Shown: piece after piece, positions 18,053-28,791 of the stretch
How the letters are laid out: every line of letters begins with the position of its first letter
Position numbering within the stretch: position 1 is the first letter of the stretch
From: a bacterium
Lineage (GTDB): Bacteria; Patescibacteriota; Minisyncoccia; UBA6257; GWB1-50-10
Assembly: GCA_021815205.1 (NCBI GenBank)
Contig: JAKAHD010000001.1
Coordinates: 25,247-89,246 of the forward strand
Reading direction: 5' to 3'
DNA length: 64,000 bases
Notes under the pieces: model-generated
Databases searched by the model: none
Told to the model about the DNA's origin: nothing
The model's input: the letters and a program-made list of their open reading frames with translations, nothing else
Translations under genes and position numbers: made by a program

Positions 18053-18177
18053 CCCGTGAGAAGCAAGAAACCCCGTGGCGTGCCACGGGGATGAACCCCC
18101 CACTCATTTCGTGGGGGGGAATGCCTCGTCCCGTGGCGAACGCGGGGTTTCCTGCCCCCATGTGAGCTTCTCACGGG
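18053..18177. mobile_element. MITE-like repeat family D copy 1 (~125 bp, 13-bp perfect TIR TCCCGTGAGAAGC / GCTTCTCACGGGA, hairpin-rich GC core)
   Basis: Near-identical copies occur at 23137-23263 and 27380-27511. The internal hairpins are CCCCGTGGCGTGCCACGGGG and CCCCACTCATTTCGTGGGGG. Confidence 0.85.
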
Positions 18178-22959: not shown

Positions 22960-23136
22960 GTCCATTGGAGGTGATTATTGGCTAAGCTACACGAGACGAT
23001 CTTTTGGATGATATATACCAGATCGCAATCCTTTCCCAATGTAACCTTATTAGGTAAAAACAACTTTTCCTTTTCGAAGAAGCTTCTTGGAGTGAGGATA
23101 TAGCTTTATGAGCGACAATGAAGGAACAGGAATTTA

Positions 23137-23263
23137 TCCCGTGAGAAGCAGAAAACCCCGGGCGTGCCACGGGGATGAACCCCACACTCATTTAGTGTGG
23201 GGGTGAATGCCTTGTCCCGTGGCGAACGCGGGGTTTACTACTCCGTGTGAGCTTCTCACGGGA
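23137..23263. mobile_element. MITE-like repeat family D copy 2
   Basis: Same 13-bp TIRs and core as 18053-18177, with a few substitutions. Confidence 0.85.
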
Positions 23264-23400: not shown

Positions 23401-26400
23401 TCACAGCGCCTCCACCCCCTCGCAGATATACTTTGTGTCCCCGTTTTTCCACGAGAGGAAGCCGTCCACGATGACCACCCTGTTCTCCTCCCACACTTCC
23501 GGTTTCTTCGCGAGGAGCTCCGAAAACACAAGGAGCTCGATTGAATTATTTTCGTGGTCTTCGAGCGTTACGAAGAGCATCGGCTGCCCTTTTTTTGTTA
23601 CGATCTTCTTCATGACGCTCACGACGCCCGCCATCCGGAACTTCAAAGATTTTTCACCCTGCTTCGGTACGGAGAGCGCGAATGCGATGGTCTTTGCCTT
23701 GCCGTTCAGTTTCGGCAGATGCTCGCTCATCGGATGGTCGGTGAGGTAGAGTCCTAAAAGCTCTTTTTCCCACCCAAGCATTGTGGCGGTATCGGTTTTT
23801 TCGACGGGACGGAGACGCAACGCCCCGAACGTCGAGACGTTTCCGAAGAGTGAGTTCTGGTTGCTTCCGGAGATTTTTTTTGCGGCCTGGTTGAACTTGA
23901 TGAGCTCCTCGATGTTTGCAAGAAGCGTGCCGCGTTCTACACCAAACGAATCCAACGCGCCGGCTTTTGCGAGACTTTCCAGGGACTTCTTGTTCATATC
24001 CCTGTGATAAAGACGCGAGAGGAAGTTTTGGAGACTGGTATATGCTCCGCCGCGCGCCCGCTCTTCGATAATGGCGTTCACGATGTTCGCGCCGAGATTT
24101 TTGATCGCGAGGAGTCCGAACCGTATTCCAGCTTGCCCCGAATCGGATTGAGGGGGTTGCCCCGCGTGCCCGCCGAAGTTTTGCGAATACTGGGAGCGTA
24201 TCGAAGAGTCTACGGTGAAATCCTGGAAGCTCGAGTTCACGTCCGGAGGCAGTACCTCGATTCGGTGATGCCGCGCCTCGCTCACGAGAAAACTGATACG
24301 CTCCACGTCGGTGCCCGAGACGTTCAGGAGACTTGCCATAAACTCGACGGGATAGTGCGCCTTAAGGTACGCCGTCTCGTAGCTTATCATGGCGTAGCAC
24401 GCGGCATGCGATCGATTGAAGCCGTACCGCGCGAAGGGAGGAAAGAGCTCCCAAATCTTCACGGCGATGCGCTTCTCGATGCCGTTTCTCGTCATGCCCT
24501 CGATGAGTTTTTTCTCCTGTTCGTCAAGGAGACTCTTGATTTTCTTTCCGATTGCCTTGCGGAGCGTGTCCGCCTCGGCGAGCGTGAAACCCGCGAGGTC
24601 GCGCGCGATGCGCATCATCTGTTCCTGATAGATTCCCACGCCGTAGGTCCCTTCGAGGATGGGCTTGAGTTTCGGATGAATGTAGTTTACGGTTTCTCTT
24701 CCGAACTTGCGGTTGATGTACTGCGGAATCAGTTCCATAGGTCCCGGGCGGTACAGCGATACCATTACAATAATGTCCTCAAGGTTGGTCGGCTTCAGCT
24801 CTTTCAGATAGCGGCGCATACCCTGCGACTCGAACTGGAAGATGCCGGTCGTGTCGCCTCTCTGGAAGATTTCGAATGTTGCCGCATCGTCAAGGGGAAT
24901 TGCGTCGATGTCGATCGAGACGCCGTGATATTCCTTCACGAGGCGGAGCGTTTTTTCGATAATGGTGAGGTTCTTGAGTCCCAAGAGGTCCATCTTCAAG
25001 AGCCCAATATCCTCGACACTGTGCCCCTCGAACTGCGTGAGGATCGTCTCTTCTCCTTGCGGCGCGTGCTGGAGCGGTATGAAGTTCGTGAGCGGTTCGG
25101 GGGAAATCACAACGCCGCATGCGTGCACCGAGGCGTGGCGAGCCGTACCCTCGAGTTTCAGTGCCGCGTCGAGGATCTTCTTCGCGTCCGCGTTATCGGT
25201 GTACAGCTTCTTAAGTTCCGGAATTGAGACGATTTCATCCTTCAGAGGAATGTTGAGACCCGTGATGAGCTTCGCGATCTGGTCGCACAAGGCGTAGGGG
25301 TAGCTCATCGCGCGTCCCGCGTCGCGAATTGCCGCGCGCGCCATCATCGTCCCGAACGTGATAATCTGCGCGACGTGGTCCGCGCCGTAGCGCTCGCGGA
25401 CGTAGGCCAAGACCTCGTCGCGGCGCGTGTCCGTGAAGTCCACGTCGATATCGGGCGCCTGGATCCTGTCGGGGTTCAGAAATCGTTCGAAGAGAAGCTC
25501 GTACTTCAGGGGGTCGATGTTCGTGATCCCGAGGATATAAGAAACGATGCTTCCCGCCGCGCTCCCGCGGCCGGGCCCCACGACAATGCCGTGATCCCTC
25601 GCCCACGTAATGTAGTCCTGCACGATAAGGAAGTAGTCGGCGAAGCCGGTTTTCTTAATCACGCCCATTTCCATCTGAAGGCGTTCCCGTACCTCATCCG
25701 TCGTCTTGGGGTATCGCTTACCGATTCGCTCCTCAATGAGATTGCCGAGGTATTCGAATGAATCTTTTCCTTCGGGGAGCGGGAAACGGGGAAGAAACGT
25801 CTTTCCGAGTCCGAGCTGCCAGTTGCACTTCTCCGCGATTTTCCATGTGTGCTCGATCGCCTCGGGAATATGCGCGAAATGTTTTTCCATCTGCTCCGGC
25901 GATTGAAGTGAGAGGTCGAAGCGTTTCAAACTCAGGCGATCCTCGTCGTCGAGTTTGGTGTTCGTCTGCACCGCGAGAAGTATCTCATGCGCGGTCTTGT
26001 CGTCGGGATTCACGTAATGGATATCCTGCGTCGCGACGAGCGGAATACCGAGTTTTTTTCCAAGTGTCATGAGCGGCGCGTGGAGTTCCGGTGCGTGCGG
26101 CTGTACTTCGAGATAATAATCTTCGCCGAAGAGGTTTTGATACCATCGCGCGGTTTCCTCCGCTTCCTGCATTTTTTTTGCCGCGACGAGCCGCCCGATT
26201 TCCCCGGAGAAACATCCCGAGAGACACACAAGCCCCTCGTGGTGTTTTTTGAGAAGCTCCTTGTCAATGCGCGGCTTGTAGTAGAAGCCGTCGAGGTAAG
26301 AGATGGTGACGAGCTTTATGAGATTCTTCCATCCCGTCTCGTTTTTTGCGAGGAGGATTTGATGATAACGCATCTCGTCGATTTTCGGTCGTTTATTGAG

Positions 26401-27379: not shown

Positions 27380-27511
27380 TCCCGTGAGAAGCAAGAAACC
27401 CCGTGGCGTGCCACAGAGATGAACCCCCACACTCATTTCGTGTGGGGGGGGTGAATGCCTCGTCCCGCGGCGAACGCGGGGTTTCCTACCCCCATGTGAG
27501 CTTCTCACGGG
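27380..27511. mobile_element. MITE-like repeat family D copy 3
   Basis: Same TIRs and core as copies 1 and 2. Followed by a 44-bp imperfect palindrome ATTACTAACTTGTGTGACGATCGTCACATAAGTTAGTAAT (27521-27566). Confidence 0.85.
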
Positions 27512-27585
27512 ATTTATTTTACATTACTAACTTGTGTGACGATCGTCACATAAGTTAGTAATGTAGTAATAGAGAAAACGAGTAT

Positions 27586-27620
27586 AGGATATAAAATCCC
27601 GCCTGTGAAACACAGGCGGG
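27586..27620 (-). terminator. Rho-independent terminator of rnpB (CCCGCCUGUG-UUU-CACAGGCGGG followed by AUUUUAUAU on the minus strand)
   Basis: A 10-bp GC-rich stem followed by a U-rich tract, immediately after the conserved 3' end of the RNase P RNA. Confidence 0.6.
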
Positions 27621-28490
27621 ATTGTCGGCACATCGTAAGCGGGATTCTGTTTTGTCCCCCGCATGAATTTATGCGGGGGATGAAGCGATAATTCATCTGG
27701 GCCCTCGATTACTCTCGGGCTCAAGCCCTTCGACGCTGCTCGGGGCTATGCGGCACTTTGCCAATGTTACGCATTGGCCGCGGAAATACGCGGACTTCAC
27801 GCAGAACAACATAGAAAAATTTCCGCGCTCTTCCGCGTCAGTTCGGCGAACTTCCGCGGTCAGTGCGTAACACTGACAACACGACCTTGCACCCTGTAAG
27901 GATTTAGCCGTTTCATCTCCGCGTTTCCATCCCTATTGCGGAGCTGGACCAACTAGCTTGGGATTGGGTCCCTCCGGTCCTTTCGGACCGGAGCGTTTCT
28001 GCTCGCACCTCTAAGGTTTCCCTCGACGGCTGTTAGCCGCTACATTTTGCCACTGCTCCGCAGTGGCCGCGGACTGCGCTGACTTTACGCTGACTACGCG
28101 GAATATTCTGCGTGTGTCCGCGTGCTGTCTGCGACTTTCTGCGGTCATTGCGAAGCAATGACAGGGTGTCCCGACTTTCCTCCCCCCACCACTTTTGATG
28201 TCTTACCTGATACTTTTTACAATTCGCTTTCTTAATTCGGAGTATGAATTTTTGAACTGTTTCAATCTTCTTTCTCGGATTATCGCGTCGGATTTATCCC
28301 GATAGGCCTCATAGTAGATCAATACAAAAGGCTTTCTTGATTTGATCGATTTATTGGCGCCGCCATTATGCTCTCCTAATCTTCTTTTCAGGTCTTCGGT
28401 ATACCCGATATACAGGTCTCTGTCTCGTTCACTTTTTAAAACATAGACATAAAACATCAAAAGTGGTGGGGGGCTATCGCTTGATGTACC
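27620..28490 (-). ncRNA. rnpB: RNase P RNA, bacterial type A, with expanded helices and a ~290-nt insertion (the GIY-YIG ORF) at P3
   Basis: The minus-strand reading contains the universally conserved blocks. The P4 5' strand is GGAGGAAAGUCGGGAC, against E. coli GAGGAAAGUCCGGGCU. GGCUAACAGCCGUCGAGGGAAACC and GGUGCGAGCAGAAACGCUCC correspond to the conserved GGUAACGCC...GGGAAACC and GUGCAACAGAAA blocks. GGGAUGGAAACGCGG corresponds to GGGUGAAAGGGUGCGG. GGCUAAAUCC...GGGUGCAAGGUCG corresponds to GGUAAACUCCACCCGGAGCAAGGCC. The 3' region GGGCUUGAGCCCGAGAGUAAUCGAGGGCCCAGAUGAAUUAUCG...ACAAAACAGAAUCCCGCUUACGAUG matches E. coli GCUUGAGCCAGUGAGCGAUUGCUGGCCUAGAUGAAUGACUG...ACAGAACCCGGCUUAUCGG. The upstream promoter is TTGACA-16-TAGAAT. 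The ends are approximate. Confidence 0.65.
28203..28460 (-). CDS. GIY-YIG nuclease-family protein (UPF0213/YhbQ-like, 85 aa) nested within rnpB
   Basis: YVYVLKSERDRDLYIGYTEDLKRRLGEHNGG gives a clear GIY-YIG motif. The ORF exactly fills the loop closed by 19-bp perfect inverted repeats CCCCCCACCACTTTTGATG (28182-28200) and CATCAAAAGTGGTGGGGGG (28456-28474). The TTG/ATG start lies within the repeat arm. Confidence 0.8.
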   Translation of the reverse strand: MMFYVYVLKSERDRDLYIGYTEDLKRRLGEHNGGANKSIKSRKPFVLIYYEAYRDKSDAIIRERRLKQFKNSYSELRKRIVKSIR

Positions 28491-28496
28491 GCGGTC

Positions 28497-28524
28497 ATTC
28501 TAGGTTATTTGAATATTTTGTCAA
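28497..28524 (-). promoter_or_regulatory. Sigma70-type promoter for rnpB (TTGACA - 16 nt - TAGAAT on the minus strand)
   Basis: A consensus -35 and near-consensus -10 lie about 7 nt upstream of the predicted P1 5' strand GGUACAUC. Confidence 0.55.
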
Positions 28525-28556
28525 TTGTCGTTACTATGAGGAGCGGATAGAAAAAT

Positions 28557-28629
28557 GCCACCTTAGCTCAGCTGGTAGAGCAATGCTTTCGTAAAGCATG
28601 GGTCCCGAGTTCGAGTCTCGGAGGTGGCT
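28557..28629 (+). tRNA. tRNA-Thr (anticodon CGU)
   Basis: Cloverleaf with acceptor stem GCCACCU/AGGUGGC, anticodon stem-loop AUGCU-UUCGUAA-AGCAU and T-arm GGGTC-CCGAGTTCGAGT-CTCGG. CCA is not encoded. Confidence 0.85.
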
Positions 28630-28645
28630 CAGAACTTCATATTCG

Positions 28646-28791
28646 GTAAACCCCAACGTGGCGATCATCTCCGTTCTTGCGGGCGCAGGAGGACTTGTCC
28701 TTCGAAGCCTTATTCTTAATCCAAGAAAACTAATATGTTATCGGTAAACCCCAACGTGGCGATCATCTCCGTTCTTGCGGGCGCAGGAGGA
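28646..28791 (+). repeat. 49-bp direct duplication (GGTAAACCCCAACGTGGCGATCATCTCCGTTCTTGCGGGCGCAGGAGGA) at 28646-28694 and 28742-28790
   Basis: The second copy encodes residues VNPNVAIISVLAGAGG of the truncated RF2. The first copy is out of frame, in the tRNA-Thr/prfB spacer. Confidence 0.9.

Follow-up and report, generated by a model that had tools for sequence, protein, structure and literature searches.

A GIY-YIG nuclease gene in the P3 helix of RNase P RNA from a Patescibacteria bacterium, probably carried by a hairpin-bounded cassette of stable-RNA genes

Can an essential ribozyme carry a complete protein gene inside one of its helices, and if so, what kind of element brought the gene there? 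The question is raised by a locus in a 64,000-nucleotide stretch of DNA, referred to here as the window (positions 25,247 to 89,246 of contig JAKAHD010000001.1). The minus strand of the window, from 28490 to 27627, is the gene for a type-A RNase P RNA (rnpB) of a bacterium of the Patescibacteria, or candidate phyla radiation (CPR). The position of helix P3 is taken by a perfect 19-bp inverted repeat that encloses a gene for a small GIY-YIG nuclease, as the initial annotation of this DNA had proposed. Judging from comparisons of DNA and protein sequences, we conclude that the window probably contains a promoterless, hairpin-insulated selfish cassette, which resides in a working rnpB and would be expressed by read-through from the rnpB promoter.

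The P3 cassette and its RNase P RNA

The inverted repeat is separated from P2 by a single G and, when extended to 24 nt, is complementary at 23 of 24 positions (96%). The whole cassette is about 290 bp long, with the outer ends CCCCCCACCAC.../...GUGGUGGGGGG and the arm sequence CCCCCCACCACUUUU. The stem had first been described correctly as perfect and 19 bp long, but with the upper arm one base off (28456-28474 instead of 28455-28473). The repeat arm is unique in the window; when up to three mismatches are allowed, two matches are obtained against 0.01 expected by chance. The nuclease gene, of which the window holds one copy, fills the loop and leaves two loop bases alone non-coding. Its start codon is embedded in the 5' arm, as had been noticed from the start, and its stop codon falls where the 3' arm is imperfectly extended. 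The open reading frame (ORF) had been read as 85 codons long (28203-28460); the ORF exists and encodes a GIY-YIG protein, but its start is the ATG at 28457, yielding 84 amino acids. The ATG, opening a protein that begins with MFYVY, is shared by homologues and by database gene calls (P0001, 100% identical), and an exact-sequence look-up of the 85-amino-acid protein starting at TTG 28460 found no entry.

Comparison of the protein with UPF0213 and PF01541, which had been suggested as a check, bears out its assignment. The Pfam GIY-YIG profile PF01541 is matched with an E value of 2.6e-18 and 66.5 bits, against a cut-off of 22.6, over profile positions 1-74 of 78. Among solved structures, the nearest are the UPF0213 proteins BH0048 (1ZG2, E 3.8e-13) and EF2693 (1YWL, E 1.7e-08), followed by SLX1 (E 7e-4 to 1e-3); the catalytic domain of I-TevI (1MK0) is a weak match (E 0.0072) that rests on the shared fold. 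Y3, Y16, G18, R26, H30 and E50, among which are the catalytic Tyr, Tyr, Arg, His and Glu positions, do not vary across 31 homologues. The protein consists of the catalytic domain alone, is of the stand-alone, UPF0213/SLX1-like kind and has no DNA-binding domain. UPF0213 proteins (BH0048 and EF2693; YhbQ-like) and SLX1 are likewise single catalytic domains of about 85-100 amino acids. Unlike the gene in the window, they are annotated as ordinary chromosomal genes, and we know of no hairpin-bounded cassette or RNA-gene context described for them. The family is large, with 7,824 representatives (50% identity) at E <=0.001 and 702 at E <=1e-10. PHROGs yielded no match to the protein, and NCBIfam and PADLOC yielded weak motif-level matches only; the protein is therefore left with no phage or defence annotation.

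Is the gene the passenger of an intron? Homing endonuclease genes occur in group I introns, as with I-TevI, and, in archaea, in the bulge-helix-bulge introns that interrupt rRNA and tRNA genes, and the initial annotation had likened the locus to ORFs in the loops of group I introns. The likeness holds insofar as a nuclease gene of the GIY-YIG fold is nested within a structured RNA without destroying the function of its host. It fails in that the protein stands alone, with no domain for binding DNA, and in that there is no intron: the cassette has neither a ribozyme nor a splicing motif and is insulated by a plain perfect helix. An intron of group I or II interrupting rnpB and bearing a homing endonuclease gene would agree with GIY-YIG genes being classic passengers of group I introns and with a weak similarity to NCBIfam grpIintron_endo (E 0.0022, 18.1 bits versus a cut-off of 56). 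Yet no intron family is found at E <=10 in the region 27400-28700, the ORF leaves 2 nt of the loop and hence no room for a ribozyme, and an 84-amino-acid protein devoid of a DNA-binding domain does not fit. Moreover, none of the insertions that hold GIY-YIG genes in CPR rRNA genes looks like an intron of either class (PMC11270868). We thus reject the intron, whose probability we consider negligible.

The conserved blocks of type-A RNase P RNA, which had been read by eye, are all present on the minus strand. Both universally conserved P4 blocks, GGAAAGUC.GG and ACAGAA..C.GCUUA, are found at 28181-28168 and 27650-27635, as are, read on the same strand, the P8 UAAC hairpin, the P9 block GGGAAACC and the GGGCUUGAGCC...CCCAGAUGAAU block. 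Recognition by the covariance model is a different matter. A scan of the whole window with Rfam at gathering thresholds reported two tRNAs only and not RF00010, whose gathering score is 100 bits. In E-value mode on the sub-region, RF00010 matches 28093-27621 with 31.7 bits (E 6.4e-8), so that the expectation that the model would score the region was borne out in this mode but not at the gathering score. In the alignment P8, P9, J11/12 and P18 fall into place, as do the 3' strands of P2 and P4. The real 5' end is on the far side of a 290-nt insertion and was therefore assigned wrongly; about 500 nt of insertions in the RNA explain why the score stays under the threshold. The orthologue on a related metagenome contig (L002) reaches 63 bits (E 6.7e-18), and another locus (L032) 97 bits. 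There is no second RF00010 match within the 64-kb window, which is what the scan covered.

This behaviour is in accordance with what is known of the group. According to Lui et al. 2021 (PMC8172020), the RNase P RNAs of CPR bacteria are diverged, those of 10 of 35 circular genomes falling below Rfam thresholds, and manual refolding was needed owing to greatly extended helices such as P15. The RNA of the window behaves like theirs, being below threshold and having extended helices. Their study notes homing endonuclease genes in rRNA spacers, but inside RNase P RNA it describes neither a protein-coding gene nor a GIY-YIG domain nor a repeated element.

One may ask whether the RNA is functional at all. 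A decayed pseudogene, hit by an insertion while a working copy resides elsewhere in the genome, would account for the low RF00010 score and for inserted material that makes up more than half of the 870 nt. Covariation speaks against it. Eight RNase P cores were aligned after cassettes and large inserts had been cut out by hand; the structure was predicted from the same alignment as was tested, and the ends of P1 and P2 were out of register and hence checked by eye. In the 41 predicted pairs 92.3% of the cells are paired, versus 35-48% when the partner is slid by one to three columns, and 26 pairs change on both sides versus 6-10 in the slid controls. In the eight sequences the pairing of P4 reaches 100%, and of its three covarying pairs one is a CG-to-GC flip specific to the window; here the window has GUCGGG with CCCGC and L002 has GUCCGG with CCGGC. 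The paired fractions of the other helices are 95% in P5, 91% in P8, 94% in P9, 96% in P15 and 91% in P18, with compensatory changes. In the window itself P1, P2, P4, P5, P8, P9 and P18 are all preserved, and comparison with relatives shows covariation in them. Between the window and L002 a C-G pair of P1 becomes A-U, which confirms the P1 pairing that had been put forward, and a U-A pair of P5 becomes G-C. Likewise, the strands of P1 and P2 that face each other across the cassette in L005, L008 and L020 have other sequences but remain complementary. When the full 870-nt RNA is folded (minimum free energy, MFE, -359 kcal/mol; z = -14.4), the MFE and centroid structures alike contain P1, P2 and the P3 repeat, and the two large inserts without an ORF form separate rods.

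Given that the core helices are paired with compensatory changes, the flipped pair of the catalytic helix among them, that the promoter and the terminator are intact and conserved, and that the same architecture recurs in 17 species-representative genomes and 30 metagenome contigs, a pseudogene is very unlikely on the sequence evidence and the RNA is most readily taken as a working rnpB. In addition, circular CPR genomes carry a single diverged, helix-extended RNase P RNA below Rfam thresholds (PMC8172020). We reject the pseudogene on covariation and on recurrence in other genomes, and would give it hardly any weight.

Both transcription signals first proposed to bracket the RNA, the promoter TTGACA-16-TAGAAT and a terminator downstream, are present (Table 1). 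The hexamers of the promoter and their spacing are identical in L002. A consensus scan found no other promoter-like site on the minus strand upstream of the ORF, and the rnpB promoter is the sole one. The terminator follows P1; it was missed by the consensus scan because part of its U run is inside the stem.

The same cassette is found at the same site in close relatives. L002, L003 and L004 encode an 86%-identical protein at the same place, their promoter and arms are identical to those of the window, and the cassette lies, as in the window, between tRNA-Thr/prfB and RNase HII (the latter 78% identical between L002 and the window). The ORFs of the window and L002 differ with a dN/dS of 0.057 at a dS of about 1.0, which shows strong purifying selection on the protein. 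Neither arm differs between the two at any of its 24 positions; at such a dS the arms are therefore constrained in sequence, beyond pairing.

Table 1. Positions in the window of the RNase P RNA gene, its signals, helices and insertions
Feature	Position	Strand	Description
RNase P RNA, bacterial type A	27627..28490	-	about 864-870 nt with four insertions; core about 330-370 nt
rnpB promoter TTGACA-16-TAGAAT	28497..28524	-	11/12 positions match; about 7 nt upstream of P1 5' end
P1 5' strand GGUACAUC	28490-28483	-	pairs with P1 3' strand GAUGUGCC at 27634-27627
P2 5' strand AAGCGAUA	28482-28475	-	pairs with P2 3' strand UAUCGCUU at 27690-27683
P3 repeat, 5' arm CCCCCCACCACUUUUGAUG	28455..28473	-	holds start codon 28457-28455; imperfect extension to 28450
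GIY-YIG gene	28203..28457	-	84 amino acids, ATG 28457, stop codon 28205-28203; fills P3 loop
P3 loop	28454-28201	-	254 nt
P3 repeat, 3' arm CAUCAAAAGUGGUGGGGGG	28182..28200	-	abuts P4 block directly; extension to 28205 covers stop codon
P4 5' strand block AGGAAAGUCGGGAC	28181-28168	-	followed by P5 5' strand; unusual G compensated by C in P4 3' strand
Insertion 1	28050..28160	-	about 111 nt, rod-like, ORF-less, between P5 and P7/P8
Insertion 2	27758..27879	-	about 122 nt, rod-like, ORF-less, P15-P17 position
P19-position hairpin CCCCCGCAUAAAUUCAUGCGGGGG	27655..27680	-	absent in L002; comparable hairpin at same position in L008
P4 3' strand block ACAGAAUCCCGCUUAC	27650-27635	-	followed by P1 3' strand GAUGUGCC
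Intrinsic terminator hairpin	27595..27623	-	perfect 13-bp arms, 3-nt loop, then U-rich tail

The cassette family and its host RNAs

The initial annotation had known of no description of the arrangement. It is not unique and occurs widely among Patescibacteria. When one genome per species was scanned with the protein profile, 485 loci were returned, of which 80 were kept; the source names of homologues also gave the CPR affiliation of the window locus. Seventeen cassettes lie in rnpB, where they occupy P3 (L005, L008, L020, L032, L049, L064, L070), P15-17 (L007, L017, L022, L024, L029, L038, L052), P12 (L033), P9 (L051) or the P19 position (L037). About 35 are located at the 5' ends of tRNAs, mostly tRNA-Ala-UGC and also those for Ile, Val and Lys, two at the 5' end of transfer-messenger RNA (tmRNA; L057, L062) and three within rRNA, namely 23S (L039 and L041, the latter with the same kind of terminal repeat) and 16S (L075); in about 23 loci no host RNA was identified. 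For every identified host RNA the orientation of the cassette is that of the host. A repeat of at least 12 bp, usually 17-27 bp, surrounds the ORF in 67 of 79 loci with a shared outer motif, CCCC(C/U)(C)AC, and across the family the start and stop codons stand in or beside the arms.

Metagenomes were scanned for rnpB in which the P3 3' strand AAGTGGTGGGGGG is joined to P4, and 48 contigs were obtained. A GIY-YIG ORF is present in P3 of 30 of them, always co-oriented, and is degraded or truncated in three of the 30. The other 18 are ORF-less and have hairpins of 23-92 nt or a diverged 5' strand. With frameshifted ORFs in L108, L113 and L032 as well, the gene is therefore dispensable.

In the protein tree the tRNA-, tmRNA- and rnpB-type proteins fall into separate groups, and the copies from P3, P15 and P19 are intermixed. 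Protein lineage, arm type and host type are associated.

Several single loci are worth describing. In the two tmRNA hosts (L057, 935-1572; L062, 1474-2110) the 3' arm runs straight into the 5' GGGG of the tmRNA (137 and 119 bits). In L010 and L025 (about 1475-1780), two of the cassettes for which no host RNA was identified, the flanks are complementary past the arms, which suggests helices of structured RNAs unknown to Rfam. The cassettes of L009 and L011 are followed by GGGGGAAAGGUCGA, with a faint similarity to the P4 block. In the two RNAs whose cassette lies in P12 or P9, the specificity domain is complete and of the canonical type A, with P13/P14-like GGGUAAGGGUGAAAAGG blocks. One of these two carries the bin label Nitrospinota, and some further cassettes were binned as Omnitrophota, Phycisphaerae or Cloacimonadota; provided that this labelling is correct, the cassette family may extend beyond Patescibacteria.

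A part of this picture has a precedent. Tsurumaki et al. 2024 (PMC11270868) describe GIY-YIG genes in non-intron insertions of CPR 16S and 23S rRNA, at the tops or bases of stem-loops, and cite an earlier report (their reference 2) for GIY-YIG genes in CPR rRNA insertions. The bacterial group, the protein superfamily, the non-intron nature and the site at the tip or base of a helix are the same as in the window, where a GIY-YIG ORF lies in a non-intron insertion at a stem-loop of a CPR structural RNA, and relatives of the window protein are found inside 23S and 16S rRNA just like the published insertions. The cassette is thus of a known kind, a non-intron GIY-YIG insertion in a CPR structural RNA gene. 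The differences lie in the hosts and in the ends. The window-type elements reside in rnpB and in tRNA and tmRNA leaders, whereas the text of PMC11270868 mentions neither RNase P nor tRNA; nor are inverted repeats mentioned there, or ORF-less derivatives and strict co-orientation reported. The rnpB host therefore extends the published description of rRNA. In open-access papers and bioRxiv we found no literature on a protein-coding gene inside RNase P RNA. What is new here is an essential ribozyme as host, with five of its helices colonised, and, in addition, the sites in tRNA and tmRNA leaders, the defined and conserved ends, the ORF-less derivatives and the orientation rule.

Mobility, expression and competing explanations

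Does the cassette move? The proposal that a mobile inverted-repeat-ORF cassette invaded P3 is strongly supported by its occurrence in five rnpB helices, in tRNA and tmRNA leaders and in rRNA, and by the ORF-less and degraded copies. At about 20 of 33 tRNA or tmRNA sites, tRNA positions 1-11 are repeated (10-11 nt) upstream of the 5' arm. From its sequence this repeat has the look of a target-site duplication, or of a tRNA 5' end that the element has restored. In L018 (about 1480-2146) two cassettes stand in tandem before one tRNA-Ala, and in L034, L044 and L065 (about 1750-1800) a 22-nt ORF-less hairpin, CCCTCTGCTCGCGAGCAGAGGG, lies between two copies of the tRNA 5' fragment. Tandem cassettes and interposed hairpins suggest, on sequence grounds, that the same insertion site has been used repeatedly. 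Two further observations were made at these sites: at tRNA-adjacent loci (L012-L083; for example L014, 1476-1790, L026 and L040) the 3' arm overlaps tRNA positions 1-4, and the sequence of the duplicated 5' fragment follows the particular tRNA.

Arm variants peculiar to one genome are shared by the ORF-less hairpins and the ORF-bearing copy of the same RNA: in L020, for example, both P3 and P15 have ACAA, and in L007 the arms of P3, P12 and P15 are identical. In L095, L115 and L121 the ORF-less P3 keeps the 3' strand AAAAGUGGUGGGGGG, and the 5' strand has drifted from C to U until the pairing is largely G.U. This is the pattern expected under RNA-only constraint: an RNA helix is still formed, but the DNA inverted repeat is gone. 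Two of these RNAs, L115 and L121, share the P2 sequence of the window, AAGCGAUAG. The arms of ORF-bearing copies are 94.5% Watson-Crick, a figure that is suggestive only, since stem finding penalised G.T.

Terminal inverted repeats conserved across copies, together with ORF-less derivatives, give the family a transposon- or MITE-like layout. Repetitive extragenic palindromes (REP) with their associated RAYT proteins, miniature inverted-repeat transposable elements (MITEs) and Rickettsia palindromic elements are short hairpin repeats with autonomous and non-autonomous forms, tolerated inside genes as the insert folds away. Compared with these, the cassette is alike as a hairpin repeat that exists in both forms and is borne by functional genes, from whose structure it folds away. 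It is unlike REP/RAYT and MITEs in that its protein is a GIY-YIG nuclease and not an HUH or DDE transposase, and in that it is concentrated in stable-RNA genes and not dispersed. To our knowledge, stand-alone GIY-YIG domains are not established as transposases.

How would such a gene be expressed and spread? The repeat closes a helix that holds the 254-nt loop off the ribozyme core, and P1, P2 and P4 pair across the insert. The cassette, probably devoid of a promoter of its own, would be transcribed within the RNase P RNA precursor from the rnpB promoter, and cassettes of the family in general would ride on the strong promoters of stable-RNA genes. Because the start codon is buried in a 19-24-bp stem and no clear Shine-Dalgarno sequence precedes it, ribosomes could probably load only during transcription, before the 3' arm emerges some 250 nt later. 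Translation limited by the stem would keep the output of nuclease low despite a strongly expressed gene. The nuclease may recognise the conserved arms, or the hairpin or cruciform that they form, which would fit an SLX1-like protein made of one domain and the association of protein lineage with arm type. Spread or maintenance could proceed by homing, in which ORF-less hairpin alleles would be cut and the ORF copied in, or alternatively by a transposition-like insertion; the 10-11-nt target duplications next to tRNAs argue for insertion as DNA.

More broadly, and with considerable reserve, we propose a new class of hairpin-ended mobile elements, in which an SLX1-like GIY-YIG nuclease would recognise its own arms, hairpin or cruciform and enter, by insertion or homing, the hairpin loops of stable-RNA genes that are highly transcribed, so that RNase P RNA would double as an mRNA and a helix of the element would replace P3, P9, P12, P15 or P19. 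The proposal taken as a whole is tentative, and we incline somewhat to doubt it. A bolder variant would have the GIY-YIG protein recruited as an RNA-binding or processing partner of RNase P and its substrates.

Whether the RNA is cut at the cassette is a separate issue. Intervening sequences of 23S rRNA, some with an ORF of the 23S rRNA-intervening sequence protein family, are removed by RNase III and the rRNA is not re-ligated. Like the cassette, they replace a terminal loop by an extended helix, may hold an ORF in the loop and leave the host RNA functional; unlike it, they involve another protein family and another host RNA, and the cassette has a conserved terminal repeat and signs of insertion as DNA. 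By analogy, RNase III could cut the P3 stem, and the loop, lost without re-ligation, would be the mRNA. The ribozyme would then consist of two pieces, a 5' fragment of about 25-30 nt and the rest, joined by P1, P2 and the residual P3. The stem, perfect over 19 bp and matched at 23 of 24 positions when extended, is long enough as a substrate. The non-intron insertions of CPR rRNA, including those with GIY-YIG genes, are found at the tops or bases of stem-loops, and RNase III cleaves certain intervening sequences of bacterial 23S rRNA without subsequent ligation (both in PMC11270868). The predominance of Watson-Crick pairs in ORF-bearing stems, biased as the procedure was, points the same way, but near-perfect arms are equally explained by a constraint at the DNA level, and a cut within the stem would leave the start codon paired or remove it. 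We hold cleavage to be quite possible, if a little short of an even chance. It is compatible with a mobile cassette.

Several observations weigh against a selfish mobile cassette. The persistence of the cassette across a dS of about 1 fits stable vertical inheritance or domestication equally well. A metagenome scan, looking for P2 strand, 8-38 nt and P4, found no empty allele in close relatives, and no flanking duplication is visible at the window locus or at other rnpB sites. No Shine-Dalgarno sequence is recognisable upstream of the ATG. The GIY-YIG protein lacks a DNA-binding domain with which to find a target. Finally, in 560 kb of fetched DNA the ORF-less CCCCCACCAC hairpins are almost confined to rnpB, often several per RNA, a concentration that could equally mean a role at the RNA level.

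Some of these points lead to a domesticated function in ribonucleoprotein (RNP) particles. The CCCCCACCAC/GUGGUGGGGG helices would be binding modules in the stable RNAs of the lineage, and the GIY-YIG protein would act on or with them, not, or no longer, as a selfish DNA nuclease; it might be an accessory RNase P or RNA-processing factor, or an enzyme that excises its own stem. Such a function is favoured by the low dN/dS and the fully conserved arms of the window and L002, by the conservation of arm sequence, beyond pairing, over deep divergence, by the crowding of ORF-less hairpins in rnpB, by the association of protein lineage, arm type and host type, and by the other host sites, the 5' ends of tRNA and tmRNA, being substrates of RNase P. 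On the other hand, all named GIY-YIG relatives (UPF0213, SLX1, I-TevI) are DNA nucleases, the gene is dispensable, as the 18 of 48 rnpB without an ORF and the three frameshifted copies indicate, duplications of tRNA 5' ends and tandem copies are signatures of DNA insertion, and the RNA of the window has just one such hairpin. We therefore regard an RNP-level function as unlikely and continue to prefer the selfish cassette.

What follows if the cassette is what it seems to be? An essential catalytic RNA can carry a complete, conserved protein gene within a helix, and has done so repeatedly, in at least five helices and many lineages. Either fate of the RNA would be new for RNase P biology: uncut, the RNase P RNA would also be an mRNA; cut, Patescibacteria would possess a naturally fragmented RNase P ribozyme. 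One element family links the GIY-YIG genes of CPR rRNA, the 'homing endonucleases' of rRNA spacers, the extended helices and the undetected RNase P RNAs. Insertions of this sort explain why covariance models miss rnpB in CPR, which matters where rnpB serves as a check of genome completeness. With defined ends, ORF-less derivatives and a strict orientation rule, the mechanism of mobility and the rule of target choice are open to experiment.

Further insertions and repeats in the window

The P3 cassette is not the only insertion in the RNase P RNA of the window. The reading of an insert in RNase P RNA stands for P3, but two more large ORF-less insertions had not been separated out earlier (Table 1). 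Insertions 1 and 2 are related to each other (71% identical), and the position of insertion 2 is the site of a GIY-YIG cassette in other genomes. L002 has neither of them, nor the hairpin at the P19 position; in place of insertion 1 it has a short hairpin of about 18 nt. Searches for the two insertions elsewhere in the window and in all fetched loci returned self matches only. Their ends are without the CCCCCCAC motif and, as far as sequence can tell, they look like a second element family.

Three other kinds of repeat were noted in the window. A repeat of about 100 nt is present in three copies (18055-18165, 23135-23245 and 27380-27490; 87% mean column identity), one of them downstream of dnaE and another between RNase HII and the rnpB terminator. 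It has a core hairpin, CCCCCCAC-UCAUUUC-GUGGGGGG, within an outer inverted repeat, AAACCCCGTGGCG...CGAACGCGGGGTTT, and the core hairpin shares its terminal motif with the cassette arms. A perfect 51-nt direct repeat (28643-28693 and 28741-28791, 98 nt apart) duplicates the 5' end of a short (232-amino-acid) release-factor-like gene that comes right behind tRNA-Thr. A palindrome (27520-27565) with 23-nt arms, TACATTACTAACTTGTGTGACGA/TCGTCACATAAGTTAGTAATGTA, no spacer and 96% complementarity lies a short way downstream of the rnpB terminator; it is AT-rich and does not resemble the other repeats of the window.

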